Shown here piece after piece: positions 3,200 through 31,419 of a stretch of 36,877 bases of DNA. Under the pieces are notes generated by a model. It worked only from the letters and a program-made list of their open reading frames with translations, searched no databases and had not been told where the DNA came from. Numbering within the stretch: the first letter of the stretch is position 1; each line of letters opens with the position of its first letter. Source of the stretch: an uncultured Bacilli bacterium (GTDB lineage Bacteria; Bacillota_I; Bacilli_A; RF39; UBA660); the NCBI GenBank assembly GCA_947588865.1, contig CANPYQ010000001.1:1-36877 (forward strand). Reading direction: 5' to 3'. The position numbers and the translations under genes are program-made.

Positions 3200-3239
3200 A
3201 AAATATATTGTATAATTATTTAAGATAAGGAGGGGTTGT

Positions 3240-4805: not shown

Positions 4806-4812
4806 GTGAAAA

Positions 4813-5509: not shown

Positions 5510-5545
5510 TAATTATAGTAGATGTTATTAAAGTAGGTGATAAGT

Positions 5546-5947
5546 TTGAAAGAATCTATGTGGGGGTATGCAGTTATTACGTTAGGTATACTAGCTGTTG
5601 GTATTATTTGGTTCTTTGCAAATGTAACAAGAACAGATCAACATAATTATAATTTACTTAAAGAGACCGTTGAAGCTTCTATGTTTGATGCACTTGATTT
5701 GTCTGCTTATAGAAAAGATGGAACGGTTAAGATTATAGAAGCAAAATTTGTTGAAAATTTTATTAGAAGATTTGCGGAAAATGCTGATTTATCTAATGAT
5801 TATAAAATAGAAATATTCGATGTAAATGAAACACCACCTAAAGTAAGTTTGAGAGTTTCAAGTAGAAATTCAACGGGGGTAACAGGAGAAATGGTTGATT
5901 TTAATATAGTTAATAATATAGATGCTATATTGGAAACAAAGTATTGA
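5546..5947 (+). CDS. Pilin-like / TadE-TadG-like protein with an MKESxxG leader
   Basis: The ORF track starts at GTG 5537. I prefer TTG 5546, 5 nt after AGGTGA (5535-5540), which gives MKESMWGYAVITLGILAVGIIWFF. This parallels the leaders of the genes at 9766, 10387 and 10859. Confidence 0.7.
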   Translation: MKESMWGYAVITLGILAVGIIWFFANVTRTDQHNYNLLKETVEASMFDALDLSAYRKDGTVKIIEAKFVENFIRRFAENADLSNDYKIEIFDVNETPPKVSLRVSSRNSTGVTGEMVDFNIVNNIDAILETKY

Positions 5948-5962
5948 GAGGAGAATAAAAAG

Positions 5963-6832: not shown

Positions 6833-6836
6833 TTAA

Positions 6837-7961: not shown

Positions 7962-7972
7962 GAGGGAACAAT

Positions 7973-8875
7973 ATGAATATAACTATAATTTTTATAATTG
8001 TGTCTATACTAGCTATATTCCTAATTATATATAGGAGTAGTATTGGTGAACAAACTTATAAATATATAAGTACACAAAGTAGAAGATTATATAGTAAAGT
8101 TGCTCCTTATACATATAAAGAAATAAGAAAAAAAATAAAAGAATTAAAGCAAGATTATACAGTAACTCAGTATATTGGACAAGTAATATTATTTGCGGTA
8201 GGAGCTGGGGTCGTAACATATTTGTATTTTTACAGTTTAGTTGTATCTATAATTTATGCTGTACTTGCAGTCACAGCGGTACCATATATTAATTATTTAA
8301 GATGCAAAAGACTTTATAGCGAATTTATATTTGAACAAGTCCAAGTATATACGACAAATGTTATAATGGAGTTTGCGACAACTCAAAGTTTCGTTAAGTC
8401 ACTTGAAGGTGTGTATTCATCTGGTATATTGGAAGATCCTGTTAAACAAGACGTTAAAGCTATGATTGATATGGCATATGAGAATGGTACAATAAATCAA
8501 TCACTAGAGTATATGAACGAAAAATACGATTTTTATATGGTAAAAAATATGCATCAATTATTTTTACAAATAACTAATGAAGGATCAAAAGATGCTAGTG
8601 ATTCACTTGAAAATATGTCACTTGATATAGATATGCTTGTAGAAGCAGTTTATAGAGATAGGTTGGATAGAGAAGCCTTTTATAAAAAATTTATTAAATT
8701 TGGTTTAATATTATATTTGATGATAGGATTAGTACAAATAATGTTAGGAGACACATATCATAGTATGCTTAATTTATGGTATGTTAGACTTTTGTTACAT
8801 ATAATTGTAATTATAAATACTTATTTCTTATTATCTGGTACTAAATTTTATAATGAGAATGTGGGGGCTGAATAA
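7973..8875 (+). CDS. TadB-like (GspF/T2SSF-domain) pilus platform membrane protein
   Basis: RBS GGAGGG. The layout is N-terminal TM, central TM pair, a helical cytoplasmic domain (FEQVQVYTTNVIMEFATTQSFVKSLEGV...INQSLEYM) and C-terminal TM segments. This architecture and position are typical of TadB. Confidence 0.7.
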   Translation: MNITIIFIIVSILAIFLIIYRSSIGEQTYKYISTQSRRLYSKVAPYTYKEIRKKIKELKQDYTVTQYIGQVILFAVGAGVVTYLYFYSLVVSIIYAVLAVTAVPYINYLRCKRLYSEFIFEQVQVYTTNVIMEFATTQSFVKSLEGVYSSGILEDPVKQDVKAMIDMAYENGTINQSLEYMNEKYDFYMVKNMHQLFLQITNEGSKDASDSLENMSLDIDMLVEAVYRDRLDREAFYKKFIKFGLILYLMIGLVQIMLGDTYHSMLNLWYVRLLLHIIVIINTYFLLSGTKFYNENVGAE

Positions 8876-9666
8876 TGGAATTTTTAATAGTTACAATATT
8901 AATAATAATTATAGTTATTGTTAATAATATAGTTGATACTAGACGTTTTTTCGAACAAGTCAATCCATTCTTACAGAAATTTATGGAAAAAGACTATGAA
9001 TTCTTGCTTAGAGTAAAATATAAAGATAAGGATTTGGATGTAAATGCTCTTTTTTCAAGAAGAATAAGAGATGGTATTATAACTGCTGCAGTGTTAATAT
9101 TTCTTTTAGCGGTTACTGGGTATTTGAACTATATGTGGGCATTTGGTGCTTGCATAGGCGGATTTTTAGTATTTAAAAGTGGTTATACTAAGTTAAAAAC
9201 TTTTTATAAAGCAAGATTACATACAATGGATTCTATGCTTCCATATTATTTAAAGAGTTTGGAAATTTTAGTACAGCATTATACAGTTCCAGTTGCTCTA
9301 TCAAGAAGTATAGATACTGCTCCAGAGATATTTAGACCTGGACTTAGGAAATTAGTTGCTAGAATAGATGAAGGTGATGCATCTATTCAACCATATATTG
9401 ATTTTGCAAATGAATATCCAGTTAGGGATTCTATGCGTATGATGAGACTTTTATATCGTTTAGGATTAGGCTCAAATCAAGACAAACACGAGCAGATAAT
9501 GATGTTTTCAAAGACTGTATCATCACTTCAAAATAAAGCCCGTGAACAAAAATATAAAGACCGTTTAGAGTCTATGGAAAAAAGAACCATGATAATGTTG
9601 TTCGTAACAGGTGGTGGCGTTTTACTAGTTTTATTTATGTCAATGTCTGTTATGATGGGAATATAA
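8875..9666 (+). CDS. TadC-like (GspF/T2SSF-domain) pilus platform membrane protein
   Basis: TAATG stop/start overlap with the previous gene. The topology is the same TM / cytoplasmic helical domain / TM layout (LPYYLKSLEILVQHYTVPVALSRSI...PGLRKLVARIDEG). Confidence 0.7.
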   Translation: MEFLIVTILIIIIVIVNNIVDTRRFFEQVNPFLQKFMEKDYEFLLRVKYKDKDLDVNALFSRRIRDGIITAAVLIFLLAVTGYLNYMWAFGACIGGFLVFKSGYTKLKTFYKARLHTMDSMLPYYLKSLEILVQHYTVPVALSRSIDTAPEIFRPGLRKLVARIDEGDASIQPYIDFANEYPVRDSMRMMRLLYRLGLGSNQDKHEQIMMFSKTVSSLQNKAREQKYKDRLESMEKRTMIMLFVTGGGVLLVLFMSMSVMMGI

Positions 9667-9699
9667 TGTAAAAAAAATGTAAATAATATAATTAAAGTA

Positions 9700-9729
9700 T
9701 TGATTTTAATACTTTGATTGTTGTATAAT
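9700..9729 (+). promoter_or_regulatory. Dedicated promoter for the candidate major pilin gene
   Basis: TTGATT (9700-9705), 18-nt spacer, TATAAT (9724-9729). An 8-bp inverted repeat, aaagtatt (9694-9701) / aatacttt (9708-9715), overlaps the -35 element. Confidence 0.55.
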
Positions 9730-9765
9730 TAGTTTAGGATATTTAGAAAGTAGGTGAGGTTTTAA

Positions 9766-10032
9766 ATGAAAGAAGCAGCAGGAGAAGCAAATATGACAGT
9801 AATAACAATAGTTTTAATAGCTATAGTACTTGCAATCGGAACAATTATAGTAACTAATATGATGAACAATACTGGAAAAAATTCTGCTTGTTCAAGTGCA
9901 GGTGGTGTATGGAATAGTGGTAAATGTTATGCAGCAAGTTCATGTAAATACGATAATGGAAAAACTACGTGCTCAGGAACTACTTTAAGTTGTAAGGAAT
10001 CTGGTAATGATTGGATATGTGAATCAAAATAA
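9766..10032 (+). CDS. Small pilin-like protein (candidate major Flp-like subunit) with a Cys-rich head
   Basis: RBS AGGTGAGG. MKEAAG leader, hydrophobic helix EANMTVITIVLIAIVLAIGTIIV, then about 50 aa containing 6 Cys. The gene has its own promoter and terminator. Confidence 0.75.
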   Translation: MKEAAGEANMTVITIVLIAIVLAIGTIIVTNMMNNTGKNSACSSAGGVWNSGKCYAASSCKYDNGKTTCSGTTLSCKESGNDWICESK

Positions 10033-10050
10033 ATTTTTATTAAAAATTCG

Positions 10051-10073
10051 AGAGGGTATTTACCTTCTTTTTT
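10051..10073 (+). terminator. Rho-independent terminator after the pilin gene
   Basis: agagggt (10051-10057) pairs with accttct (10062-10068), including one G-U pair, around a 4-nt loop. A T5 run follows (10069-10073). Confidence 0.5.
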
Positions 10074-10320
10074 GTGCCGTAAATACGAATTTTATTACTA
10101 TTAAAGTTTTTTAACTGAAAAAAATTTTTATGTGAACCCCAAGTAGAAGACATTATGGCACTCTTAGGCTATTACTTAAAAGCCCATACTGTAATATAAA
10201 TTGAATCGTCGTAGGTGGCGTGAGAGGTATAAATATAAAATAGAAAGCTTTATTTAATTTTCTCTACTCGTTTATTAACACTAATTTGAATAAAAAATTT
10301 AAACGATTGACATAATATCA

Positions 10321-10350
10321 TTGACAAAACTTCTTTACAACTGTTATAAT
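10321..10350 (+). promoter_or_regulatory. Near-consensus sigma-A promoter for the minor-pilin / tadZ / VirB2-like operon
   Basis: TTGACA (10321-10326), 18-nt spacer, TATAAT (10345-10350). A second TTGACA lies at 10307-10312. Confidence 0.6.
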
Positions 10351-10386
10351 TATATAGGTATATAATAAGAAAAGAGGTAATGAGAA

Positions 10387-10839
10387 GTGAAAGAAAGCGT
10401 AGGTTATACAGTTACATTAAATATTGCGATAATGTTTATTATAATAGTTTTTGCTTTCCTTGCTGCAGCTCTTATATATTATAAAAGTAATAAAGTTAAT
10501 AATGTAATAATTAATTCACTAGAAAAGTATGAAGGATTTAATGATTTAGCTATTAATGAAATAAATAATAGTATGACAACTTTAGGCTATAATAGACATT
10601 CAATTAATTGTGGTGATAATATCAGTGATGATGGAAATGCATGTACATTAGTAGGTGACGGAGATAGTAAAGATAATGGTTATTGTGTTTATGTTTGTGT
10701 AGAAGAAAATAAGGATTACTATTATTTTAGGGTAAAGTCTTATATGATGATCAATGTACCTATTATAAATGAAATTTTAAATATTCCAATATTTTCAAAT
10801 TCAAATAGATTATATGATTTTGGCGATAGTTTTAAATGA
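10387..10839 (+). CDS. Minor pilin-like (TadE/TadF-like) protein, paralog 1
   Basis: GTG start after AGAGGT. MKESVG leader plus hydrophobic helix. It shares CVY, YYYF/YK-VK-[ST]-Y and PII-[NG]-E-[IL] motifs with the next gene. 4 Cys. Confidence 0.75.
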   Translation: MKESVGYTVTLNIAIMFIIIVFAFLAAALIYYKSNKVNNVIINSLEKYEGFNDLAINEINNSMTTLGYNRHSINCGDNISDDGNACTLVGDGDSKDNGYCVYVCVEENKDYYYFRVKSYMMINVPIINEILNIPIFSNSNRLYDFGDSFK

Positions 10840-10858
10840 TATTTAGGGATGTGATACT

Positions 10859-11290
10859 GTGAGAGAGGCAATAGGGAGTAGTTTATTACTTAGTGTGGTT
10901 GTTGTTTTTGTAGGACTAATAATATTATTTTTTGTAAATATATTATCTTATTCTAAAGCTTATAAAGCTAAGAATAGAATAATAGAAATTATTGAAAAAT
11001 ATGAGACATATTCAGAATCAAATTCAGAATCCAGTGAGTTAAATGAAATAAAGCAATCTTTACAAGATATGGGTTATCAGACGGGTGAATGTAAAAATGA
11101 GGATTCTAAAGATAATATAGCAAATAGTGGATATAAATATTGCGTTTATAGAATTGATGAAGAAGGCGGAACATATTATTATAAAGTAAAAACTTATGTT
11201 CAGTTCTATTTTCCAATAATAGGTGAACTCTTTAATCCACCGGTACAAAGTGAAACTAAAATATTAGGGAAAAGCTATGATTATGATTGA
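10859..11290 (+). CDS. Minor pilin-like (TadE/TadF-like) protein, paralog 2
   Basis: GTG start. MREAIG leader plus hydrophobic helix. Clear paralog of 10387-10839 (GYKYCVYRIDEEGGTYYYKVKTYVQFYFPIIGELFNPP). 2 Cys. Confidence 0.75.
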   Translation: MREAIGSSLLLSVVVVFVGLIILFFVNILSYSKAYKAKNRIIEIIEKYETYSESNSESSELNEIKQSLQDMGYQTGECKNEDSKDNIANSGYKYCVYRIDEEGGTYYYKVKTYVQFYFPIIGELFNPPVQSETKILGKSYDYD

Positions 11291-11304
11291 AAAGGGGAAA
11301 TATA

Positions 11305-12309
11305 ATGAATGTAATAGTGTCAAATAAAAATCAAATGTTGCTGGAAAATTTGGGCATAGATGTTATAAAAGAGATGAATGGTGAGTTTGATGTTGATGAA
11401 ATTATAGCTACTTTTCAAAACTTTTTTTACCAACGTATGATTTTAGATATTACTGCAATAAAAGATTATAGAAATATAAATAATTTGCAAAAATTATCTA
11501 TATCTTTAGATATGAGTAAAGTAATATTATTATTAGATGGCACAAATGATACTATGAATCCAGTGTTTTTATCTAATTTGGTATCTATGGGTATTTATAA
11601 TTTTACTAAAAATGTAGAAGGTATACAGTATCTTTATAATACTCCTAATACGTATCGAGATGTGGCACAATTTCATAGTTTAAATTCATCTTTAAGTGGT
11701 TCACAACCTGAACAACCTAACCCACAAGCTAGGTATATAGCTCCAGTGGTTACTAATTCAGAATCTGATTCGGATTTTTATGGAACTAGAATAATAGGTG
11801 TTAAAAATGTTACAAAGCAATCTGGTGCAAGTAGTTTAGTTTATATGATGAAAAATGAATTAGGTAAAAATTATGATGTAGTGGCTATTGAGGTAGATAA
11901 GACGGATTTTGTTTATTTTAAAGATAAATCTTTAGTATCTACAATTACTAGTGAAATTGGCACTGTTATAAATAAATATAAGAATAAAGATATAATACTT
12001 GTGGATATAAATAATAGCTTAGTTGCAGAAGGATTTTGTCAAGATGTTTTATATCTTGTAGAACCTACTATAATAAAGTTACAAAAATTAATGACTTTGA
12101 ATGCTGCAGCACTTCATAATTTAAAGAATAAAAAAATAATTTTAAATCAAAGTTTACTTAGCAGTAATGATGTCGCTAATTTTGAATATGAGGCAAGAAT
12201 AAAAGTGTTTTATAATTTGCCTCCATTAAATGAAAGAGATAAAAATATACCTGAACTTAACAATTTATTGATAAAGCTTGGATTTACTAAACAAAAATCA
12301 AATACGTAG
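11305..12309 (+). CDS. TadZ/CpaE-like protein: receiver-like N-domain plus a ParA/MinD-like domain with a degenerate P-loop
   Basis: The ORF track starts at TTG 11287. I prefer ATG 11305 after GGGGA (11294-11298). The N-domain has a CheY-like strand pattern (VIVSNK, MILDITA, KVILLLDG, GIYNFTKN). The C-domain RIIGVKNVTKQSGASSLVYMM...YDVVAIEVD...IILVDIN follows a ParA layout but lacks GK[ST]. Confidence 0.6.
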   Translation: MNVIVSNKNQMLLENLGIDVIKEMNGEFDVDEIIATFQNFFYQRMILDITAIKDYRNINNLQKLSISLDMSKVILLLDGTNDTMNPVFLSNLVSMGIYNFTKNVEGIQYLYNTPNTYRDVAQFHSLNSSLSGSQPEQPNPQARYIAPVVTNSESDSDFYGTRIIGVKNVTKQSGASSLVYMMKNELGKNYDVVAIEVDKTDFVYFKDKSLVSTITSEIGTVINKYKNKDIILVDINNSLVAEGFCQDVLYLVEPTIIKLQKLMTLNAAALHNLKNKKIILNQSLLSSNDVANFEYEARIKVFYNLPPLNERDKNIPELNNLLIKLGFTKQKSNT

Positions 12310-12317
12310 GGGGATTT

Positions 12318-12767
12318 ATGAAAAATATATTTAAAATAGTTTTAAATTTTGTTTTAATATTTATAATAAACTTTATTTTTCTTGACTTTGTACATGCAAT
12401 TCAGTATAATAATTTTGATGAATCGGAATTTGTTAGTTGTGGTGAGAAACTAATTGACAATATTCCAGCAGTTCTTCCTAATGTAGTAAGTAAAATATAT
12501 TTGATTGTTCAAGTGGCAGTTCCTATAGTGCTAGTTATAATTGGTAGTATTGGTTTAATAAAATGTATAGTCGCATCTAAGGAAGATGAAATAAAAAAAG
12601 AACAACAAATTTTGATTAAAAGAGTTGTTTCAGCAGTAATTATATTTTTTATATTTACTGTAGTTAAATTTTTAATTAGTTTAGTTGCAGATAATAATAA
12701 TATTTTGGAATGTGCGGAATGTTTTATAGAAAACAATGATAAATGTGTTGTACAAAAAAATAACTAA
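12318..12767 (+). CDS. VirB2/TrbC-like two-TM pilin-like protein, paralog A
   Basis: RBS GGGGGA. Signal peptide, Cys near the mature N-terminus, TM1 VAVPIVLVIIGSIGLIK, loop SKEDEIKKEQQILIKR, TM2, and C-terminal ECAECF...KC. Confidence 0.7.
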   Translation: MKNIFKIVLNFVLIFIINFIFLDFVHAIQYNNFDESEFVSCGEKLIDNIPAVLPNVVSKIYLIVQVAVPIVLVIIGSIGLIKCIVASKEDEIKKEQQILIKRVVSAVIIFFIFTVVKFLISLVADNNNILECAECFIENNDKCVVQKNN

Positions 12768-12782
12768 GGAGTTACGGGAGTT

Positions 12783-13193
12783 ATGAAAAAGAAAGCGTTA
12801 AATATATTTATTCTTTTTACTGTGTTTTTTCCAGTTATAAGTATACATGCTATTGAAAAGGTATCTTGTGGGAATGTCACAGCTATTCCAGCTAAAATAC
12901 CAGAACTTACTAACTTTATTATGACTTTGGTTGAGGTTTTAGTACCTATTATTTTAGTTATAATGGGATCAATAGATTTAATAAAAGGAATATCATCACA
13001 GAAAGAAGATGAAATAAAAAAAGGGCAACAAATTTTGATAAAAAGAATTATTGTAGCAGTTATAATATTTATTGTAATAGTTGCAGTTAAATTTTTAGTT
13101 AGTATTGTTAATAATCCTGTTAATAGTAATAATATAGTTGATTGTATAGATTGTTTTTTGAATGGAAAGGAAAATTGTAAAAAGTGGAGGTAG
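12783..13193 (+). CDS. VirB2/TrbC-like two-TM pilin-like protein, paralog B
   Basis: Signal peptide, SCG, TM1 VLVPIILVIMGSIDLIKG, loop SQKEDEIKKGQQILIKR, TM2, and C-terminal DCIDCF...NC. Confidence 0.7.
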   Translation: MKKKALNIFILFTVFFPVISIHAIEKVSCGNVTAIPAKIPELTNFIMTLVEVLVPIILVIMGSIDLIKGISSQKEDEIKKGQQILIKRIIVAVIIFIVIVAVKFLVSIVNNPVNSNNIVDCIDCFLNGKENCKKWR

Positions 13194-13198
13194 TAATT

Positions 13199-13612
13199 AT
13201 GAAGAAAAAAATTTTATTTGTCGTTCTTTTGGGAATTTTAACTTTTAGCTTTTGTTCACCTGTTTTTGCTAAAAACATTTCATCTTGTGATTCTGTAATC
13301 TCAAGTAATGTTATAATAGATGAAAAAATACCAAATATAGTTAGTACTATTATAACAGTTATAAAGGTAGCTGTACCAGTATTATTGGTTATATTTGGAA
13401 TGATTGATTTAATGAAGGGTATAACATCACAAAAGGAAGATGAAATAAAAAAAGGACAATCATTATTTATAAAAAGACTTATATCAGGGGCTCTTGTGTT
13501 TTTTGTATTTACAATTGTACAATTAATTATAAGCTTTGTATCAGATGACGCTGATAACAATATAATGACTTGTGCTAGCTGTTTTATAAATAAAGAATGT
13601 CAATACAAATAA
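13199..13612 (+). CDS. VirB2/TrbC-like two-TM pilin-like protein, paralog C
   Basis: The ORF track starts at 13184. I prefer ATG 13199 after GGAGG. Signal peptide MKKKILFVVLLGILTFSFCSPVFA, SCD, TM1, loop SQKEDEIKKGQSLFIKR, TM2, and C-terminal TCASCF...EC. Confidence 0.7.
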   Translation: MKKKILFVVLLGILTFSFCSPVFAKNISSCDSVISSNVIIDEKIPNIVSTIITVIKVAVPVLLVIFGMIDLMKGITSQKEDEIKKGQSLFIKRLISGALVFFVFTIVQLIISFVSDDADNNIMTCASCFINKECQYK

Positions 13613-13628
13613 ATTATTAGGAGGATTT

Positions 13629-14741
13629 ATGGTTGATGCGTTAAAAAAACTAGATAAAAAATTTTTAATAATTGCTGGATGCATGGTTTTTTTACCAATT
13701 TTGTTTATTATTATTCTTGCTATTGTTCAAGGGTGTAGCAATAAAAAATTAACATATGAAAAATATGAAAGTAAAATGATTTCTGCGGCAGAAAAATATA
13801 TTAAAAAAGAAGATAAGAAACTTACAAACGAGGGTGAAAGTTATATAATTGACCTTAGCACATTAGTTGATAGTGATTATATTAAAGCAACAGAAGATGC
13901 ACTTGATGATACTTGTACTGGAAAAGTTATAGTTAGAAGAAATGGTTCATCAATCAAATCCAACGATGGAGGCTTTTTAAACTATATTCCATCGTTAAAA
14001 TGTGAGGGTTATAATTCAAATTCATTAATTAATTTAATAACTAAGAATATTGTTACTAGTGAATCTGGTTTATATAAAAATGGTGATGAATATATATTTA
14101 GGGGATCTAAAGTAGATAATTATATATCTTTCTTTGGTAAAGATTATAGGATACTTGGCGTAGATAGAAATGGGTTTGCTAAATTAATAGCGTCACAAAG
14201 TGACAGTGTCGATGTTTCTTGGGATATGAAATACAGTATAGAAACTAAAAGAGATACAGGCATAAATATATATAAAGATAGTAATATCCACGATAAATTA
14301 CTTGAATATTATGGTAATAAGAAGAAAATTTCACAAGATGCAAAAAAACATATTGTAGCGAATGATATATGTATAGGTAAGAGATATATTAATGATACTT
14401 CTCTTACTAGTGAATCCGATTGTTCACAAATTCTTAAAAATGAAATAATTACACTGATTAATATAACTGATTTTGCTAAAGCTAGTTTGGATAATAATTG
14501 TACAAGCATTGTTGCTAATTCTTGTAGGAATTATAACTATTTAAAAGCTTTGGGATTATGGACATGGACTGTTAATGGTGTAACAGATAATTCTTATGAA
14601 GCTTATTATTTGGGAAATGGAATAATAAGACATCAGGAAGCAAGTTCAAATGAATCATATAATGTTGTTATCCATATAGATTCTAATGAAATAGTTTTAT
14701 CTGGGGATGGATCTAAAAAAAATCCATATGTTATAAAATAA
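13629..14741 (+). CDS. Membrane-anchored (possibly lipoprotein) Cys-containing extracytoplasmic protein of unknown function
   Basis: RBS AGGAGG. N-terminal TM segment ending in IVQGC (imperfect lipobox). The following segment ISAAEKYI...LSTLVDSDYIKA...CTGKVIV loosely resembles the head start of type IV pilin-like proteins. 6 further Cys. Confidence 0.7.
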   Translation: MVDALKKLDKKFLIIAGCMVFLPILFIIILAIVQGCSNKKLTYEKYESKMISAAEKYIKKEDKKLTNEGESYIIDLSTLVDSDYIKATEDALDDTCTGKVIVRRNGSSIKSNDGGFLNYIPSLKCEGYNSNSLINLITKNIVTSESGLYKNGDEYIFRGSKVDNYISFFGKDYRILGVDRNGFAKLIASQSDSVDVSWDMKYSIETKRDTGINIYKDSNIHDKLLEYYGNKKKISQDAKKHIVANDICIGKRYINDTSLTSESDCSQILKNEIITLINITDFAKASLDNNCTSIVANSCRNYNYLKALGLWTWTVNGVTDNSYEAYYLGNGIIRHQEASSNESYNVVIHIDSNEIVLSGDGSKKNPYVIK

Positions 14742-14761
14742 ATTTATAAAATTGTTTAATG

Positions 14762-14790
14762 TTGACATTTGATGAAAAAAAATATATAAT
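14762..14790 (+). promoter_or_regulatory. Perfect-consensus sigma-A promoter driving paralog D
   Basis: TTGACA (14762-14767), 17-nt spacer, TATAAT (14785-14790). The spacer contains an A8 run (14775-14782). Confidence 0.7.
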
Positions 14791-14813
14791 GTCTTTAGGA
14801 TGGAGGAGAAAAA

Positions 14814-15185
14814 ATGTTATTAAAAATCGATACTCAAGGGCTATATACTTGTGGTAATTTAAATTTTGAGTTTTCTGGAACTTTTCCATATATAGTTAAT
14901 ATGGCAATTACTATTATAAAAATAGTTGTTCCTATTTTATTAATTATATTTGGAATGTTGGATTTGGGTAAAGCTGTTGTTGCATCTAAAGAAGATGAAA
15001 TAAAAAAGGGTCAACAAACTTTTATAAAAAGAGTAATAGCAGCTGTAATTGTATTTTTTGTAATTCAAATAGTTCAAATTGTAATTTCATTTGTTTCTAA
15101 TAAAGATCCAAATGTTGTAAATTGCTTTAATTGTTTTGTAAATGCCGATACCGAAAAAGGTTGTATTGATTTAGCTGGTGAGTAG
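14814..15185 (+). CDS. VirB2/TrbC-like two-TM pilin-like protein, paralog D (no N-terminal signal peptide)
   Basis: RBS GGAGGAG. TCG, TM1 IVVPILLIIFGMLDLGK, loop SKEDEIKKGQQTFIKR, TM2, and C-terminal NCFNCF...GC. The gene is flanked by its own promoter and a strong terminator. Confidence 0.75.
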   Translation: MLLKIDTQGLYTCGNLNFEFSGTFPYIVNMAITIIKIVVPILLIIFGMLDLGKAVVASKEDEIKKGQQTFIKRVIAAVIVFFVIQIVQIVISFVSNKDPNVVNCFNCFVNADTEKGCIDLAGE

Positions 15186-15191
15186 ATTATT

Positions 15192-15225
15192 AGTACGAAT
15201 AATATTGATTATTTGTACTTTTTTT
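15192..15225 (+). terminator. Strong rho-independent terminator after paralog D
   Basis: agtacgaataa (15192-15202) pairs with ttatttgtact (15209-15219): 11 bp including one G-U pair, 6-nt loop, then T6 (15220-15225). Confidence 0.75.
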
Positions 15226-15233
15226 GTTATAAT
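15205..15233 (+). promoter_or_regulatory. Promoter for the T4SS operon, overlapping the terminator
   Basis: TTGATT (15205-15210), 17-nt spacer, TATAAT (15228-15233), preceded by TGt (extended -10). Confidence 0.55.
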
Positions 15234-15275
15234 ATTATAAGATTGTAAGTGTATTGAATTCAAGGAGGAGTAAGA

Positions 15276-17393
15276 ATGTATGTATTATCACTAAATATGT
15301 GGTTTCAAAAATTAATTAGACAATTTTTCTTTGCGATTGATAAAATTGTTTATAATTTTATACCTGCTATATATGACTTACTTATATCAATTGCGAGAAC
15401 TTCTCCTATTTCACAGGCAGATATATCTGATATGGCTAATAGAATATATAAACTATTAACAATTTTTATGATATTTAAGGTAACTTTTTCCCTTATTATG
15501 TATGTTGTTAATCCAGATGATTTTTCTGATAAATCAAAAGGTTTATCTAAACTCGGAACTAATATAATAATATCTTTAGCTCTATTAATTATAACACCTT
15601 ATATATTTAGTTATGCCTATCAACTACAAACTATTATTCTTGAAGATAACTCTTTAGCTACTTTAATATTTGGCGAAAACAATAATAAAACATTTTTTAA
15701 TACAGCTGGGGATGATATGGCTTTCATTGTCATGAGCCCATTTTTTACTCCAAATACAGCACAAAGGGAGTTATATGATTGTACTGAACTTGTAGTAAGG
15801 CAAAATGGAGTAGAATTATTTAATCCATCTTGTTCTGGATTTGATGAAAATGGTAATAAAAATAATGATGATACTTCTCTTGCTGCTCTAATTAATAAGA
15901 ACTATTTCCCTGAAGATGACTTAAAAACTTATGTAGCTGGTGTAAATTCGGGTAACTTGGGACTTATGTTTAGACAAGATATAGCCTTGGCAACAAAGGA
16001 TAATGATTGGTTTATAATAGATTATAAATATATATTTAGTACTGTGGTTGGGATCGTTGTTGTCTTTCTTCTTATAACTTTTTGTATGGATGTTGCTTTA
16101 CGAAGCATTAAACTTGCATTTTTACAGTTAGTTGCACCAATTCCAATTATATCTTATGTTGATCCTAAAAGTGGAAAAGATGGATTGTTTAAGAAATGGT
16201 ATCAGATGTGTTTTAAAACATTCGCAAGTTTATTTGTAAGGCTTATTGCACTTTATTTTGGGGTTTTCATAATAAGCAAGGTAGCAGATAGAAAATTAGT
16301 GGATATAATAGATGGATCCTATGTATCTAATGGTTTAATAGCGATATTTATAATAATAGGTGCTTTAATGTTTGCTAAACAATTACCAAAGATACTAGAA
16401 GGATTAGGTATTAAATTAGATGGAGATGGTAAGTTCTTCTTGAATCCACTTAAGAAATTTGAAGAGCAAGCAATAGGTGGTAAAAATGTAACTGGAATGG
16501 CCAGGGGAGCTCTAGTTGGAACTGCTGGTGCATTGACTGGGGCAGGACTTGCTGCTGGGCTTTCTGGCGCTTGGCGAGGATTAAAAAATGGAAAAGGTTG
16601 GACTGAGACAGGTAAAGCTACTGCAGAGATGAATAGAAAAATGCGTCAAGCAAAATTAAATGGTTCAACTTTTGCAGGCAGAATGGGTGCTAGGGTTACT
16701 AATGCAACAGGACTAAGGAGTCAGAGTGAGTCTATTGAAAAGCAAAAAAATGCACTTCAAAAAGAAATAGATGTAATTGAAGGTGAGAAAAAACGACTTG
16801 AAGCTCAAATAGCACCAGAAAAAACTAAAATTAGAAATAATGAAAGTACATCTTCTGCAATAAAAGCTATGCAAGATAGAGCTGTTTCAAAAGTAAAAGA
16901 AGGTAATGGTGCACAGGGTACAACATATCAAGAACTACTCAGAGCTGCTGAGGCCATTAAAAATAATAATTTTGGGAGTCCGAGACTTATAACTGATAGT
17001 TTAGGAAATAGTTATACTGTAACTAATGCTAATAAAGGTGCAATTGCCAAAGAAATAGAACAAAGAGCTGAAAGGTATGCAAATGTAGAGGGTAGAGATG
17101 CATGGCTTGATGATGCGTTATCATCAGGCTCTGATACTAAATTAACAAATTTATATAGTGAATATAAGACAAAGGCGAATATTAGTGGGCATGATATAAA
17201 AGCAACTGCTTCTGATTTAGATAATCAAAGTAAAACAATTTCAACTGATACAACTAATATTAAAAATAATATTGCAACAACAGAACAAAGCATTAGCAAT
17301 AAAGAAGATGAAATTAAAGAAAAAAATGTTAAAATGCAAGAATTTAACAAGAAAGAAAAAGTTGCTAAAGCAAATGAAGATGCTATTAAGTAA
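15276..17393 (+). CDS. VirB6/TrbL-like polytopic T4SS membrane protein with a Gly-rich and coiled-coil C-terminal extension
   Basis: RBS AAGGAGG. There are at least 6 hydrophobic helices in the first ~400 aa, then GALVGTAGALTGAGLAAGLSGAW and a long charged coiled-coil tail. The gene lies immediately upstream of the VirB3-like and VirB4 genes. Confidence 0.6.
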   Translation: MYVLSLNMWFQKLIRQFFFAIDKIVYNFIPAIYDLLISIARTSPISQADISDMANRIYKLLTIFMIFKVTFSLIMYVVNPDDFSDKSKGLSKLGTNIIISLALLIITPYIFSYAYQLQTIILEDNSLATLIFGENNNKTFFNTAGDDMAFIVMSPFFTPNTAQRELYDCTELVVRQNGVELFNPSCSGFDENGNKNNDDTSLAALINKNYFPEDDLKTYVAGVNSGNLGLMFRQDIALATKDNDWFIIDYKYIFSTVVGIVVVFLLITFCMDVALRSIKLAFLQLVAPIPIISYVDPKSGKDGLFKKWYQMCFKTFASLFVRLIALYFGVFIISKVADRKLVDIIDGSYVSNGLIAIFIIIGALMFAKQLPKILEGLGIKLDGDGKFFLNPLKKFEEQAIGGKNVTGMARGALVGTAGALTGAGLAAGLSGAWRGLKNGKGWTETGKATAEMNRKMRQAKLNGSTFAGRMGARVTNATGLRSQSESIEKQKNALQKEIDVIEGEKKRLEAQIAPEKTKIRNNESTSSAIKAMQDRAVSKVKEGNGAQGTTYQELLRAAEAIKNNNFGSPRLITDSLGNSYTVTNANKGAIAKEIEQRAERYANVEGRDAWLDDALSSGSDTKLTNLYSEYKTKANISGHDIKATASDLDNQSKTISTDTTNIKNNIATTEQSISNKEDEIKEKNVKMQEFNKKEKVAKANEDAIK

Positions 17394-17413
17394 TAAAAAG
17401 GGTGTGATACTAA

Positions 17414-17734
17414 ATGGACAATTCATATTTAATACCTGCTAACTCAAAAAAAAGTATTCTTATTTTTGGTGTATTTAATACATTTGATTTAGTATTATTT
17501 GGAACTGGACTTGGAATATCATTTTTACTAATGATGTTCCTTCCAATTAACAATTTTTGGATCGCAATTTTATCAATTACTCCTGGTATTATATGTGGTT
17601 TTTTGGTTTTCCCAATACCAAATTATCATAATGTTAGAACTGTAATTAAGAATGCTTGGATATTTTATACTACAAGACAAAGATATATATGGAAAGGTTG
17701 GTGTGCTGGTGATGGCGAAGCAAGTAAAAAGTAA
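17414..17734 (+). CDS. PrgI/TcpE/VirB3-like small two-TM T4SS protein
   Basis: 106 aa, with two hydrophobic helices (ILIFGVFNTFDLVLFGTGLGISFLLMMF and WIAILSITPGIICGFLVF). Its position directly before VirB4 is typical. Confidence 0.6.
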   Translation: MDNSYLIPANSKKSILIFGVFNTFDLVLFGTGLGISFLLMMFLPINNFWIAILSITPGIICGFLVFPIPNYHNVRTVIKNAWIFYTTRQRYIWKGWCAGDGEASKK

Positions 17735-18251
17735 ATATACTGATATACCTATAAAAAATATCACTAATGGTGTTATTATACTTGATAATAATCAAAAAGT
17801 TACGGGTGTTAAAATAATGCCAAGAAATATATTTATTCTTGATCCTGATATGCAAAATGCAATAATAACGAATTTAAAAAATGTCTATAATGCAATAGAC
17901 TATGAGTTTTGGATTGTTGTTGCTGATAGACCTGTTGATATTAATGTATACTTATCTCAATTACAATTGTTATATAATCAAATAAATGATACAAAAAAAA
18001 GAAAATTGATATTAGAAGATATTAATAAAGCTAATATGTTTATGAATAACAATGTTGTTGATACAGAATATTTCTTACTATTTAAGGATAAGGATAATGA
18101 TTTATTACAGAAAAGAATACGTAACTTAATAAATAATTTTGCAAGTGCAGGACTCACTGCTTTTCAGACTACAAATGATGATTTGAGAATGATTCTTGAT
18201 AATTTCTTAAATGGTGGACAAACTACTACATTTGGGACGGTGTTAGCGTAA
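17712..18251 (+). CDS. VirB4 N-terminal-domain-like protein (separate ORF)
   Basis: The ORF track starts at 17652, inside the previous gene. I prefer ATG 17712 (MAKQVKSKYTDIPIKNITNGVIILDNNQKVTGVKIMPRNIFIL...). This resembles the N-terminus of Firmicutes VirB4-type ATPases. It ends in a TAATG overlap with the ATPase gene. Confidence 0.6.
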   Translation: MAKQVKSKYTDIPIKNITNGVIILDNNQKVTGVKIMPRNIFILDPDMQNAIITNLKNVYNAIDYEFWIVVADRPVDINVYLSQLQLLYNQINDTKKRKLILEDINKANMFMNNNVVDTEYFLLFKDKDNDLLQKRIRNLINNFASAGLTAFQTTNDDLRMILDNFLNGGQTTTFGTVLA

Positions 18252-20035
18252 TGGATATAAAAAGTCAAATAGCTCCAAAAGGGTTGGAGTTTAAATCTAA
18301 TGAATTTATAATAAGTGATAAATATGCTTGCATATTAACTATAATATCATATCCTAAATTTATATATCCAGGCTATTTAAGTAGTTTAACAAGTATGTCT
18401 GGAATTAAAGTGGTAATTAAGCATATACCATTACCATTTAGTAGTATAAGCAAAATGTTAAACAAGGAATTAGCTGATTTAAGGCAAAGATATCAAGAGG
18501 AGAAAGATAAAACAATTCAGGAAAGAATAAGACAGGACTATGAGTCATTAGAAATGTTTGTTAGTGAGCTCGCTGCCAGTCAATCTAAAATATATGATTT
18601 TCAAATGCATGTTATGATAACAGCAGATACACAAGAAGATTTAGATTTGAAAAAGGTTCAAGTAAAAAATTATTTAGAAGCTATGGAAATGAGGGGAATA
18701 CCTCTTAGATTTGAACAAGATAAAGTATTAAAATCTATTTTACCTATATATGGTAAACAAGATATTGAGGATAGAATAGGTACTCCTATTCCAACTCCCA
18801 CTATAGCAGCAATGTATCCATTTATATTTGACAGTATAAAAGATCCAGGACTTTCAACATTACTTGGAATTGATTTTTCAGGTGGTGTAATTCTGTTTAA
18901 TCAGTTTTTGTATCAAATAAAAAAGGAACATAATAGAAATAATGCTAACATGATTATTTTAGGTACATCTGGTAGTGGTAAATCTACTGCTGCAAAATTG
19001 TTATTAAGAAGTCATATTAGAAATAATAATCAAATTGTTGTTATAGATCCTGAGGGAGAATTAGAGGAAATGACAAAATCTTTTGATGGAGATTTTATAA
19101 GTCTTGGAAAAGGTGGAGCATTCGGAATGATTAATCCACTTGAAGTAATAGTAGATGCAGATGATGAAGAGATGAACCAAGGACTTGGTTATACTGTTTT
19201 TACTCGTACTTTACAGACTATAAAGGCATTCTTAAAATATTATGATCCTAGTATAACTGAGGATGTAGTTAATATGTTCAGTGAGATTGTTCAAGAAACT
19301 TATAAAAGATTTGGGATAGATTTTAATTCAGATTTTACAAAATTTAAACCAGAGGATTTTCCAACATTTAAGGATGTATATGCTACGATAAAGGGTAGAA
19401 TATTATCTATGCCAGAAAAAAGTCAAGAAAAGGATGTTCTTGAAAAATTAGAAATAAAAATAAGACCAATAATTAGAGAGCTTAGATATTATTTTGATGG
19501 ACATACAACAATAAAACCTAAAAGTAATTTTATAGTATTTAACATAAAAGAACTTATGAATGCGGATAGTAATATAAGAAATGCTTTATTCTTTAATATA
19601 TTGAAATATGCTTGGGGTCTTACGCTTGATAGTACAGTAAATACTATTATGATGGTTGATGAAGCACATGTTCTCCTTAGCGGAGGTAATACTTTAGGAG
19701 CTGACTTTTTAGCTCAAATACAAAGAAGGGCTAGAAAATATAATACAGGTACAATAATAATAACGCAACAACCTACAGATTTTAGTGATCAAAGTGTTAT
19801 TACGCAAGGAAAAGCTATATTTGATAACGCATCATATTATCTTGTAATGGGATTAAGAAAACAAGCTGTAGATGATTTAGCTAAACTTATTGATTTAAAT
19901 GATAATGAGAAAGAAAGTATTAAGCAATATGGACAAGGAGAGGCACTATTTGTGTGTGGCTCTAGACGTATGAGAATAAATGTGATTGTATCAGATGAAG
20001 AGTTAGATGCATTTGGAAGTGGCGGCGGATTATAG
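18251..20035 (+). CDS. VirB4-family T4SS ATPase (central and ATPase domains)
   Basis: Walker A GTSGSGKST, Walker B IMMVDEAH, IIITQQPTDF. The N-terminal IAPKGLEFKSNEFIISDKYACILTIISYPKFIYPGYLS matches the conserved VirB4/TraE middle-region pattern. Confidence 0.9.
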   Translation: MDIKSQIAPKGLEFKSNEFIISDKYACILTIISYPKFIYPGYLSSLTSMSGIKVVIKHIPLPFSSISKMLNKELADLRQRYQEEKDKTIQERIRQDYESLEMFVSELAASQSKIYDFQMHVMITADTQEDLDLKKVQVKNYLEAMEMRGIPLRFEQDKVLKSILPIYGKQDIEDRIGTPIPTPTIAAMYPFIFDSIKDPGLSTLLGIDFSGGVILFNQFLYQIKKEHNRNNANMIILGTSGSGKSTAAKLLLRSHIRNNNQIVVIDPEGELEEMTKSFDGDFISLGKGGAFGMINPLEVIVDADDEEMNQGLGYTVFTRTLQTIKAFLKYYDPSITEDVVNMFSEIVQETYKRFGIDFNSDFTKFKPEDFPTFKDVYATIKGRILSMPEKSQEKDVLEKLEIKIRPIIRELRYYFDGHTTIKPKSNFIVFNIKELMNADSNIRNALFFNILKYAWGLTLDSTVNTIMMVDEAHVLLSGGNTLGADFLAQIQRRARKYNTGTIIITQQPTDFSDQSVITQGKAIFDNASYYLVMGLRKQAVDDLAKLIDLNDNEKESIKQYGQGEALFVCGSRRMRINVIVSDEELDAFGSGGGL

Positions 20036-24988: not shown

Positions 24989-24997
24989 GTGATTATC

Positions 24998-27091
24998 ATG
25001 AAATTAAGATTTAGAGCTGATTCTAGGGATATGTTAATATTTTGTATATTTGCATTTGTTTGGTTAATTGTTGTTGCATTTGCAGTGTCAAATGTTTCAC
25101 AATTTTTAAATGGGGAGTCTTTAACAATTAATTTATTTTTGGCATTTTTACCTAGGAATTTGGCTACAACTATAGTATTCTTTTTTGCAGGTTTAGTAGC
25201 TATTTTTGCTGGAGTTAAGTCCATCTTTTTGGAAAAAGAAGATGATGCAACTGGAATAGGTATATCTATAGGGCAAAAGAAGGAAAAAAATTATGCTAGA
25301 TGGGCAAAAGAAAAAGAAGTACAAAATGGATTAGATGTAAAAGCTGTAGATCCACTTGCTCCAAAATCAGATGCTGCAGGTATTCCACTAATTATGAATC
25401 CAAAAAAGGTATGGGTTGACAATGGTGGGTATCATAATCTAGTTATAGGATCTACAGGTGCAGGTAAAACTCAAACAACTGTTTTGCCAATGGTTAATTT
25501 ACTTGCCAAGCATGATGAGTCTATGATAATAACAGACCCTAAAGGTGAAATATATGAAAACACTTCTAATTATTTAAAAAGTTTAGGATATAATATAGTT
25601 TTATTAAATTTTCGTGATCCACAACAAGGTAATGCCTGGAATCCAATGTATTTACCTTATTCGTTATATAAAGATGGAAATATAGACAAATCTGTTGAGT
25701 TGCTTGAAGATCTTGCTGCAAATATCCTTCATGATCCTAGTGCTAAAGGACAAGATCCATTCTGGGAAAATACTTCCGCGGATTATTTTGCAGGACTTGC
25801 ATGTGCACTTTTTGAGGATGCTGATCCGTCAGAGATAAATTTAAATAGTATTAGTTTAATGACTACTGTTGGTGAAGAAAAATTAGCAAATACTACATAT
25901 GTAAAAGATTATTTCAGTTATAAAGATCCAGGAGGAACTGCATATACAAAAGCATCTTCTACTTTAATGGCTCCGAGTGAAACAAAAGGTAGTATTTTAT
26001 CTGTATTTAAACAAAAAATACAATTATTTGCATCACGTGCTAATCTTTCTGAAATGTTATCTAATAATGATTTTGATATGCGTGATATAGGGAGAAAAAA
26101 AACAGCTGTATTTATCGTTATACAAGATGAAAAAACTACATATCATTCTTTGGTAACTATATTTTTAAAACAGTGCTATGAAACATTGATTTCAGTAGCG
26201 CAAGAATCAGGTGGAAAACTACCTCATAGGACAAACTTTATATTGGATGAGTTTGCCAATATGCCTCCTTTGAAGGACGTTACAACAATGGTAACAGCTG
26301 CTCGTTCAAGAAATATAAGATTTACCTTTATAATACAAAACTTTGCTCAACTTTATGAAGTATATGGGAAAGAAAATGGTGAAACTATTAAGGGTAACTG
26401 TGGTAATATTGTTTATCTGATAAGTACAGAACTTTCAGCACTTGAAGAAATTAGTAAGATGTGTGGAGAAGTTAAATCAAAAGAAAAAGAGAAGACATCA
26501 TCAACACCACTTGTTACAGTAAGTGATTTACAAAGATTAAGTCAGTGGGAAACAATTATTTTAAGACTTAGAACAATGCCTTTTAAAACTAAATTAACTC
26601 CAAATTATCAAATGAATTGGGGCCACAGTTTTCCTAAGGCAACATATCCATTAAGAGAAAAATGTCCAGTAAAAACATTTGACATAAAAGCTTTTGTTAA
26701 TAAAAAAAGAGAAGAAAAGATTAATAATATGCTAGGTGGAGAACCTAAAAATGGTTTTGAAAATATGTCAATGCCTTTCGCACCAGCTCCTTCATTTAAT
26801 CCATTTCAAGATATGCAAAAATCTTCTAATGTAGGGGGATTTAATGTTGACGATTTAGTTAAAAGAATAGATGCTAAAATAGCCGAATTAGAGGAAGAAG
26901 AAAGACAAGAAAAGGCTAAATCAGAATCAAATCAAAATACTTCTGTTAAAGACGCTAAAATTGAACAGAATATAAGTAGTAGTAACGATACAAACAAAAT
27001 TGATGAAAATAAAAAATATGAACAAGAAAAAATTGATAAAAATGGAATTACAGATGATCAGTTCTTTGATGACTTTTTTGCAGATGAATAA
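24998..27091 (+). CDS. VirD4/TraG-family type IV coupling protein
   Basis: The ORF track starts at GTG 24989. I prefer ATG 24998, 5 nt after AGGTGA. Two N-terminal TM segments, Walker A GSTGAGKTQT, Walker B NFILDEFANM, RSRNIRFTFIIQNFAQL, and an acidic C-terminal tail. Confidence 0.9.
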   Translation: MKLRFRADSRDMLIFCIFAFVWLIVVAFAVSNVSQFLNGESLTINLFLAFLPRNLATTIVFFFAGLVAIFAGVKSIFLEKEDDATGIGISIGQKKEKNYARWAKEKEVQNGLDVKAVDPLAPKSDAAGIPLIMNPKKVWVDNGGYHNLVIGSTGAGKTQTTVLPMVNLLAKHDESMIITDPKGEIYENTSNYLKSLGYNIVLLNFRDPQQGNAWNPMYLPYSLYKDGNIDKSVELLEDLAANILHDPSAKGQDPFWENTSADYFAGLACALFEDADPSEINLNSISLMTTVGEEKLANTTYVKDYFSYKDPGGTAYTKASSTLMAPSETKGSILSVFKQKIQLFASRANLSEMLSNNDFDMRDIGRKKTAVFIVIQDEKTTYHSLVTIFLKQCYETLISVAQESGGKLPHRTNFILDEFANMPPLKDVTTMVTAARSRNIRFTFIIQNFAQLYEVYGKENGETIKGNCGNIVYLISTELSALEEISKMCGEVKSKEKEKTSSTPLVTVSDLQRLSQWETIILRLRTMPFKTKLTPNYQMNWGHSFPKATYPLREKCPVKTFDIKAFVNKKREEKINNMLGGEPKNGFENMSMPFAPAPSFNPFQDMQKSSNVGGFNVDDLVKRIDAKIAELEEEERQEKAKSESNQNTSVKDAKIEQNISSSNDTNKIDENKKYEQEKIDKNGITDDQFFDDFFADE

Positions 27092-30336: not shown

Positions 30337-31419
30337 ATGAAAAGAATTAGTGTTATGATCATATTTACGATGTTATTATTTATAAATATAGGTAAAATTA
30401 GTGCTGCTACTTGCGAATATAATCTAACTAGAAATAATGATCTCTCAAGTTCCGGTAAAGGTATTTTACATATAACGACAGCACGAGATGATCAAGGTAA
30501 ACTTACTATATCATATGAACATGAGAAACAGGGAGATCTTTATAATGTTTCTGATTTTTATTTAAATTCTAAAATGCTAACTGATGATAATCAATGCTTT
30601 GGTTCTATTACTCTTTGTACATTGAGCAATGGTCAAATGGGAATATTTGCATCTACAATGGATCCTAATGTATTAGATGAAAATGGCTCTTTTGAATATG
30701 ATATTGGCGATAAAGGACTTGATTGGTTTTGGGAATTTATTTCGAATAAGAGTGAGGTTTGTTATACAGTCGATGTATCTAAAATGACAATTAAAAATGA
30801 AAATGGTGAAGATGAAGAAATTGATGTATCAGATGCATCCAATAATGATGTTAATTTTGTATATTCATGTTCTAAATTTGAAGAAATGTATTCTGATATA
30901 GCACACTCATATAATGACTATGGTAATTGTAGTGGTAACAAAGCATCGGTTTCTAGTTGTAGAAGTAATGCATTATCCGAGGTAAATAGAAAATCAGATA
31001 ATTTAAAAAATGTTTGTAGAAATATAACTCAAAATCAGGGTTATAATGCAACGGATTCTTGTATACAGTCGTGTTTACATGTTAATAATTCTATACAAAA
31101 ATTAAGGGATTTATATATAAAAACGCATCAATCTGTAATTTCAAATGATTGTTCATTTTCAGATAGATTGATTATTTGGATTAGAAATATATTCAATTGG
31201 GTAAAATATATAATACCAACAGTTGTAATAATTTTAGGTATTATTGATTTTATTAGAGCTATTGCATCTGAAAAAGATGATGAAATGAAAAAAGCTCAAT
31301 CAAGGTTTGTAAAAAGGTTGATATCAGCAGCACTTATCTTTATAGTACCTTTTGTATTAGTATTTATATTAGATAAAATGGGATTTACCCCAGATGCATG
31401 TGGGATTATGGATTTATAA
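30337..31419 (+). CDS. Cys-rich secreted ectodomain fused to a C-terminal VirB2/TrbC-like two-TM module (paralog E)
   Basis: The ORF track starts at 30319. I prefer ATG 30337 after GGAGG. Signal peptide MKRISVMIIFTMLLFINIGKISA. An ectodomain of about 280 aa with 11 Cys. The C-terminus IIPTVVIILGIIDFIRAIASEKDDEMKKAQSRFVKRLISAALIFIV matches the TM1-loop-TM2 core of the genes at 12318-15185. Confidence 0.75.
   Translation: MKRISVMIIFTMLLFINIGKISAATCEYNLTRNNDLSSSGKGILHITTARDDQGKLTISYEHEKQGDLYNVSDFYLNSKMLTDDNQCFGSITLCTLSNGQMGIFASTMDPNVLDENGSFEYDIGDKGLDWFWEFISNKSEVCYTVDVSKMTIKNENGEDEEIDVSDASNNDVNFVYSCSKFEEMYSDIAHSYNDYGNCSGNKASVSSCRSNALSEVNRKSDNLKNVCRNITQNQGYNATDSCIQSCLHVNNSIQKLRDLYIKTHQSVISNDCSFSDRLIIWIRNIFNWVKYIIPTVVIILGIIDFIRAIASEKDDEMKKAQSRFVKRLISAALIFIVPFVLVFILDKMGFTPDACGIMDL

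Follow-up and report, generated by a model that had tools for sequence, protein, structure and literature searches.

Comparative evidence for a predicted disulfide between the N- and C-terminal segments of VirB2-like two-helix proteins in an uncultured gut Bacilli bacterium

Can a small membrane protein of a type IV secretion machine be closed between its two ends by a disulfide bond? The question is raised by four paralogous genes, here called A to D, which form an array at 12318-15185 on the + strand of the DNA analysed, with an unrelated protein of 370 amino acids (aa) encoded between C and D. The window, i.e., the whole stretch of 36,877 nucleotides (nt), is an entire 36.9-kb contig of a 1.0-Mb metagenome-assembled genome of an uncultured Bacilli bacterium, which comprises 96 contigs and is 83.6% complete. 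An earlier interpretation made from the letters alone, the sequence-only reading, had proposed that cysteines (Cys) in the N- and C-terminal segments of these proteins could staple the two ends together, as a disulfide analogue of pilin cyclisation. Comparison with homologs supports such a staple. We assign a probability of roughly 0.6 to the explanation that a predicted N-to-tail disulfide closes the hairpin of VirB2-like subunits of the adjacent type IV secretion machine, judging from sequence comparison and structural models. The four genes and the Cys of their products are the following.

12318..12767, + strand: paralog A, 149 aa; signal peptide, Cys41, first transmembrane helix (TM1), loop with Cys83, second transmembrane helix (TM2), tail with Cys132, Cys135 and Cys143
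12783..13193, + strand: paralog B, 136 aa; exactly four Cys, namely C29 (codon at nt 12867), C121 (nt 13143), C124 (nt 13152) and C132 (nt 13176)
13199..13612, + strand: paralog C, 137 aa; Cys19 in the signal peptide, outside Cys30, Cys125, Cys128 and Cys134; the start was taken as the ATG at 13199, the listed open reading frame (ORF) starting with GTG at 13184
14814..15185, + strand: paralog D, 123 aa, without signal peptide; Cys13 (codon at nt 14850), Cys104 (nt 15123), Cys107 (nt 15132) and Cys117 (nt 15162)

Direct translation bore out the pattern of one N-terminal and three tail Cys in all four paralogs. The motifs were also as described earlier: SCG, SCG, SCD and TCG in the N-segments of A to D, respectively, and ECAECF, DCIDCF, TCASCF and NCFNCF in the tails. 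Two Cys come in addition to this 1+3 pattern, Cys19 of C inside the signal peptide and Cys83 of A in the cytoplasmic loop. The latter (12564-12566) is unique among A to D and is found just before the KEDEIKK motif. A Cys within the hairpin core was present in 15 of 237 relatives. In A to C the signal peptide is followed by two hydrophobic helices joined by a net-positive loop. The earlier placement of both termini outside the membrane is supported by these signal peptides, by the charge of the loop and by a structural model of D with two helices, described below.

It had been set beforehand that the staple should be given up if homologs failed to keep the Cys positions. Among 322 homologs of B (expectation value E up to 0.001), exactly four Cys were found in 88 of the best 120, and their positions matched in the 40 listed. 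A profile made from A to D and ten homologs matched 8020 representative clusters among the 1.84 billion searched; these clusters share less than 50% identity with one another. In the best 150 of the 8020 representatives the four columns were occupied by Cys in 146/148, 150/150, 149/150 and 133/135 sequences. The best 150 are biased towards profile-like sequences, and two further samples were taken. One comprised all family members of 75 genomic loci together with the window, giving 237 unique proteins; arrays in these loci typically had 2-8 members. The other consisted of 120 relatives of a two-Cys member that lacks a signal peptide. In the latter sample the N-segment Cys and the first tail Cys were each found in 119 of 120 proteins, the second Cys of the tail CxxC in only 40. 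The N-segment Cys and the first tail Cys were near-invariant in all three samples.

An alignment of 60 diverse homologs had a mean column identity of 32%, and only 15 of its columns were conserved at 90% or more. Cys occupied just two of these, in the N-segment and at the first position of the tail CxxC; the outside segments around this pair are otherwise variable. Since the two near-invariant Cys stand among so few conserved columns, the pattern exceeds what chance or recent duplication would give.

The second line of evidence came from counting Cys before TM1 (after a crude cut of the signal peptide) and after TM2. With random numbers about 25% of the proteins would be odd on both sides; bonds within each segment would give even and even, and one bridge across the hairpin would give odd and odd. 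Both sides were odd in 216 of the 237 loci proteins (both even: 4), in 132 of the 150 representatives (both even: 0) and in 104 of 119 relatives of the two-Cys member; the sequences are related to one another and the counts are no independent trials. Several of the exceptions, when inspected, were due to signal-peptide Cys, an error of the crude cut, or to wrong starts or truncated proteins. The combinations of N-side and tail Cys included 1+1, 1+3, 1+5, 3+1, 3+3, 5+3, 7+3, 9+1, 11+1, 13+3 and 17+1, with an N-side range of 1-21, and the rule persisted across outer domains that differ widely in length and Cys content. The outside Cys are thus conserved and paired in the manner of structural disulfides, with even totals that split odd+odd across the hairpin. 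This rule is evidence for one bridge between the N-segment and the tail. That the two segments are joined had earlier only been deduced by logic, and it now has support from parity, the bond itself being predicted.

Members with only two Cys were common, 57 of 119 in the third sample and 19 in the loci sample, and each had one Cys on the N-side and one in the tail. The lone remaining tail Cys was usually the first of the CxxC. Where the second CxxC Cys was present, the number of Cys downstream of it was odd (172/173 and 143/149 proteins), and where it was absent, the number was even in 23 of 29. From this coupling and the retained first tail Cys, the most parsimonious pairing joins the N-segment Cys to the first tail Cys and the second tail Cys to the C-terminal one. 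In the numbering of B we infer the pairs C29-C121, as the N-to-tail staple, and C124-C132, as a local bond.

Models were calculated with AlphaFold2. The model of B, from 14 sequences, had a mean confidence (predicted local distance difference test, pLDDT) of 71, with helices at 38-71 and 75-108; residues 133-134 take part in a beta bridge, and the only other strands form an N-terminal hairpin. The model of D, from 60 homologs, reached a pLDDT of 89.6 and a predicted template-modelling score (pTM) of 0.73. It has two 35-residue helices, 23-57 and 60-94, and a tail helix, 99-110. Its only strands are 10-13, which ends at Cys13, and 19-21 in the N-segment, and 117-119, which starts at Cys117, at the C-end. 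Cys104 and Cys107 are on the tail helix, three residues apart, and Cys13 and Cys117 are in strands. This placement of strands and helix suggests that the outside parts of both ends form one small cap.

The same Cys could also serve between molecules. If the N-segment Cys bonded the tail Cys of a neighbouring subunit, a filament or ring would be cross-linked covalently. Odd+odd parity and the minimal two-Cys form fit this equally well, and in solved conjugative pili both termini are on the outer surface next to neighbours (bioRxiv 10.64898/2025.12.18.695078). However, the monomer models, that of D with its pLDDT of 89.6 and also that of B, fold the N-segment and the tail of one chain into a single cap. 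In addition, conjugative pilins are drawn from the membrane pool as monomers, where a Cys pair that is free and reactive would tend to bond within its own chain. We therefore hold a link between subunits to be improbable, and prefer a staple within each chain.

The gene order around the array and a fused copy of the two-helix module, called F, bear on what the proteins are.

439-5478: large Cys-rich secreted proteins, the first block in gene order
5537-12309: Tad-like pilus set, with a T2SSE ATPase at 6837-7961
15276..17393, + strand: VirB6-like channel protein (TrbL_4), the next gene after D; match to PF19597 above cut-off (E 1.3e-8)
17414-17734, + strand: VirB3-like small protein; weak VirB4_plasma match
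17652-18251, + strand: 199-aa ORF between the VirB3-like gene and the VirB4-type ATPase
18251-20035, + strand: VirB4-type ATPase; AAA_10 and TraG P-loop matches
24989..27091, + strand: VirD4-type coupling protein, PF02534 at E 7.7e-57; ends the secretion gene set
30337..31419, + strand: fused paralog F, 360 aa; signal peptide, 11-Cys outer domain, two-helix module, 15-residue tail

The window thus holds a type IV secretion set of the Gram-positive type, consisting of TrbL_4/VirB6-like, VirB3-like, VirB4, CHAP hydrolase, M23 peptidase and VirD4 genes. D ends at 15185 and the TrbL_4 gene starts at 15276, so the array is encoded next to VirB6-, VirB3- and VirB4-like genes as expected of members of the pilin family PF18895 (T4SS_pilin). 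The order D, VirB6-like, VirB3-like, VirB4 is repeated in the relatives L085 to L088. The two helices, the short charged cytoplasmic loop and the outside position of both ends are likewise PF18895-like. The gathering cut-off of this family is 26.6 bits, and F passes it with 27.3 bits. PF18895 was also the top Pfam family for 60 members, of which 23 matched at E up to 0.01. We consider A to D, F and a further copy on contig C42 of the same genome to be probable VirB2-like two-helix subunits in a divergent branch around PF18895; the probability given at the outset covers this assignment jointly with the whole staple explanation.

Within the taxonomic family of this bacterium the profile found matches in 115 of 119 genomes (71 of 73 genera), and all these genomes are 0.6-1.6 Mb in size. 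Relaxases of the families PF03432 and PF02486 were searched for in the genome and gave no matches. A near-universal family without a relaxase of these two kinds looks like a core chromosomal feature and not a sporadic mobile element. A megablast search of 11000-18000 against plasmid and phage collections gave no match.

How such bonds could be made was considered next to the pilin genes and in the genome. The sequence-only reading saw no thiol-disulfide oxidoreductase gene in the window, and Pfam and NCBIfam scans of the main + strand ORFs agree, finding none. Outside the window the genome encodes four exported thioredoxin-fold CxxC proteins.

Contig C12: two adjacent membrane-anchored thioredoxin-fold proteins, one with CSWC and CSHC, the other with CKYC
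Contig C16: thioredoxin-fold lipoprotein with CPWC
Contig C8: anchored thioredoxin-fold protein with CPWC

Their best named match, below cut-off, was the PedC/BrcD family of disulfide isomerases of bacteriocin maturation, and NCBIfam TrbB (TIGR02738) was among the sub-threshold matches of thioredoxin-like proteins here and in relatives. Homologs of the exported proteins were found in 97 of 119 genomes of the taxonomic family. Nine of ten relatives, a biased choice made because a thioredoxin-like match lay on the pilin contig, encode an exported thioredoxin-like protein of 134-156 aa either at the border of the Tad-like cluster or adjacent to the pilin genes, and in most cases the gene is on the opposite strand.

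L080:14759-15163, L081:13957-14361 and L083:470-940: thioredoxin-like genes
L084:541-948, L085:4527-4979 and L086:5087-5509: thioredoxin-like genes
L087:2508-2954, L088:4232-4648 and L089:723-1136: thioredoxin-like genes

These small thioredoxin-fold proteins come from other genera of the family and are lipoproteins or membrane-anchored. By their sequences they are candidates for a dedicated disulfide catalyst.

Several results weigh against a disulfide-closed VirB2-like subunit. Pfam searches of the 83.6% complete genome for DSBA, Thioredoxin_4, VKOR, DsbB and DsbD_TM (CcdA/DsbD) gave no matches. These searches thus gave no candidate for the re-oxidation of an exported oxidase. The disulfide-forming machinery that the staple presupposes was therefore found in part, as the four exported thioredoxin-fold CxxC proteins, and in part not, as DsbA, DsbB, VKOR and CcdA gave no matches. 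Thioredoxin-like genes are not adjacent to the cluster in this genus, and only 2 of 75 related loci had one at a distance of 10 kb or less from the pilin genes; the adjacency in the ten relatives is therefore lineage-specific and comes from a biased choice. The exported proteins of the genome had no bias towards even Cys numbers, with 38 even against 45 odd by a crude signal-peptide rule, and the host, an uncultured gut bacterium, is probably anaerobic. As to the family, A to D are all below the PF18895 cut-off, with 17.3 bits (E 0.005) for A, 17.9 bits (E 0.0034) for C, 15.9 bits for D and no score for B. Foldseek searches of the B and D models against the PDB gave no match at E<1 and no solved VirB2-type pilin; long helical hairpins score poorly in fold searches. 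A profile search of PDB sequences returned chance hits only and nothing relevant.

Two other explanations draw on these results. In the first, the Cys would remain reduced under the anaerobic conditions of the gut and serve as metal ligands, in a Zn or Fe site made of the CxxC and two further Cys, or as redox-active thiols. The CxxC is a classic metal-binding and redox motif, and the missing DsbA, DsbB and VKOR matches, as well as the missing even-Cys preference among exported proteins, would be in line with it. But the two-Cys members keep one Cys on each side and cannot form a four-ligand site, and as they are common we judged a Cys4 metal site unlikely. Loss of the second CxxC Cys goes along with loss of its downstream partner, and extra Cys of the outer domains keep the N-side odd from 1 to 21, which is the behaviour of pairing and not of ligands. 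Reduced Cys are, on the whole, very doubtful here, and of the explanations weighed this one has the lowest standing. In the second, the proteins are not pilus subunits and are instead accessory components of the secretion channel that stay in the membrane, or else small membrane proteins of an unrelated kind, with the Cys-closed cap as a docking surface. Scores of A to D below the cut-off and the absence of a structural match to solved VirB2 pilins speak for it, and no pilus has been seen on any such organism. On the other hand, PF18895 is the best family for 23 of 60 members and F passes its cut-off, and the two-helix shape, the charged loop and the position before VirB6, VirB3 and VirB4 genes match the VirB2-like proteins proposed for Gram-positive systems. 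An accessory role is therefore unlikely in our judgement; it concerns function and is compatible with the staple itself.

With a staple within VirB2-like subunits as the preferred explanation, the following course may be proposed. After insertion into the membrane, the N-segment and the C-tail would be outside and the KEDEIKKGQQ..IKR loop inside. The outside segments would fold together into one small cap, and the cap would be locked by a disulfide joining the N-segment Cys to the first of the two CxxC Cys in the tail (C29-C121 in B, C13-C104 in D). The hairpin would then be covalently closed a few residues from each end. In four-Cys forms a second, local disulfide (C124-C132 in B, C107-C117 in D) would pin the C-terminal strand to the tail helix. 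Oxidation would most likely be carried out by the exported thioredoxin-fold CxxC proteins. The presumed effect is an outer face resistant to proteases and shear, and a fixed helix register of the subunit in the pilus or channel into which we infer that it polymerises.

The Cys pattern is also seen in a form where the hairpin carries a large outer domain. F is the fifth copy of the two-helix module in the window, fused to a Cys-rich outer domain. It has 11 Cys before TM1, the last of them (Cys272) just before the helix, and a single tail Cys, Cys355, and 11+1 fits the odd+odd rule. The fused copy on contig C42 (G000:C42:4939-5931, L091) has 9+5 Cys, and fusions in relatives have up to 21 Cys on the N-side. 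To judge by these sequences, a single hairpin scaffold seems to serve as the base of many different surface heads. A 12-Cys "paralog E" had been listed in the sequence-only reading; this number agrees with F (11+1), but not with the 8 Cys of the 370-aa protein at 13629-14741, which is no paralog.

Cys counts had also been given for other proteins of the cluster, with the generalisation that every putative filament or adhesin protein has an even number outside. The counts stood for 439-3171 (18 outside; 19 in total, one being in the signal peptide), 3240-4805 (2), the pilin at 9766-10032 (6) and the minor pilins at 10387-10839 and 10859-11290 (4 and 2, respectively). The secreted 221-aa protein at 4813-5478, which had been given 4, has 5 (positions 27, 110, 134, 143 and 206), all after the likely ASA cleavage site, and the generalisation fails at this protein. 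Its odd number implies one thiol that is either free or linked to a different protein. The large secreted proteins encoded at the position of 439-3171 have 18 mature Cys here and 31-60 in relatives. Apparent positional counterparts are L083:2902-7077, L080:7531-10443 and L084:5210-8605, and only the L083 counterpart gave a BLAST match to the 439-3171 protein.

Some other features of the window are listed here.

13629..14741, + strand: 370-aa membrane-anchored protein within the paralog array; 8 Cys, 6 of them clearly outside
14762..14790, + strand: consensus promoter before paralog D, TTGACA, 17-nt spacer, TATAAT, 12/12; consensus match only
27263-27550: 95-aa single-domain rhodanese, directly after the VirD4 gene
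3-284, - strand: ORF within which the contig begins

The 370-aa protein was considered as a paralog of A to D and rejected on scans and Cys positions; its homologs adjoin pilin genes in the relatives L081 and L088. Paralog D is likely the highly expressed subunit. Many relatives without a signal peptide share its kind of short N-terminus, M, aromatic or Leu, F/I/L, L, and this hints, from the sequences, at a conserved N-terminal signal or processing site. A rhodanese domain uses an active-site Cys. The translation of the ORF at 3-284, inspected by eye, resembles the N-terminus of a transposase (a fragment), and it was rejected on this ground as a missing oxidoreductase at the cluster edge. Judging from this sequence, the assembly was probably interrupted by an insertion sequence immediately before the first gene of the cluster. 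The secretion set is followed by the housekeeping genes RmuC, RNase R, SmpB and SpoVG. The G+C content of the window is 23-31%, and long ORFs are almost all on the + strand.

The known systems closest in topology are the cyclic conjugative pilins, RP4 TrbC, R27 TrhA and, by biochemistry, Ti-plasmid VirB2. They too are small pilins of two helices whose termini both face outwards and whose N and C ends are joined by a covalent link, which closes the chain. Cyclic pilins are closed by a peptide bond, and the link is thought to add stability (PMC13434634). The bond is head-to-tail, Ser1-Gly78 in TrbC and Gly1-Asp69 in TrhA, and is formed after C-terminal trimming. In RP4 it is made by the TraF peptidase, whereas the link proposed for the window proteins is a side-chain disulfide that would leave short free ends. 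No TraF or S26-type peptidase was found among the window ORFs scanned with Pfam. What is conserved here is a Cys pair and not a terminal Gly/Ser and Asp/Gly, so these proteins probably do not belong with pilins cyclised by a TraF-made terminal peptide bond. The host also has a single membrane, unlike the hosts of the cyclic-pilin systems. The resemblance to pilin cyclisation is one of analogy, and not of homology or shared descent of the closing mechanism.

In architecture the proteins are nearer to PrgF(B2) of pCF10 and the predicted VirB2-like proteins of Gram-positive conjugative plasmids, which have 50-150 aa and two membrane helices, with a short charged loop between them on the inner side and with both ends outside, occur with or without a signal peptide and are encoded near a VirB6-like gene. 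ter Beek et al. (bioRxiv 10.64898/2025.12.18.695078) propose such pilins in most Gram-positive conjugative plasmids; their paper does not mention disulfides, and Cys occur in it only as engineered substitutions. PrgF is encoded by one essential gene, on a plasmid that also has a relaxase, whereas here there are six or seven paralogs, some with large outer domains. The small genomes of Patescibacteria carry arrays in which 2-11 divergent pilin genes are found near virB4, as part of type IV secretion systems (PMC12102498) that are of the monoderm (MPF-FATA) kind, mostly lack a relaxase and are widespread in their lineage, as is the case here, though the lineages differ, ours being uncultured gut Bacilli. 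Quinonero-Coronel et al. describe PF18895/PF04956 pilin arrays in these bacteria and do not discuss pilin Cys (PMC12102498). Disulfide helpers of the F-plasmid TrbB type are thioredoxin-fold CxxC proteins encoded with a secretion or pilus cluster, as in relatives of our genome, but all matches here are far below the family cut-offs and in this genome the genes are outside the cluster. A VirB2-like pilin closed by a disulfide was not described anywhere in the literature searched.

It was not until 2025 that VirB2-like subunits were proposed for bacteria with a single membrane, and the staple bears on how they could remain stable outside the cell. If true, a conserved hairpin closed covalently by a disulfide would add to the peptide bond of the RP4 and R27 cyclic pilins a second way, chemically different, of reaching a closed topology. 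The exported thioredoxin-like proteins would be possible assembly factors, in a group where the genome searched gave no DsbA/DsbB/VKOR matches. The family is very large, with its 8020 representative clusters, and near-universal in a common group of uncultured gut bacteria. A wider and quite tentative idea, which we think possible but less likely than the staple itself, is that the disulfide-closed two-helix module is the universal building block of a type IV secretion apparatus that is chromosomal, has no relaxase and forms a core organelle of this lineage of genome-reduced gut Bacilli. The staple would then let the hairpin display swappable Cys-rich outer domains on a pilus or channel, for interaction with other cells or the host and not for conjugation, in parallel to the system of Patescibacteria and with a chemistry of its own.

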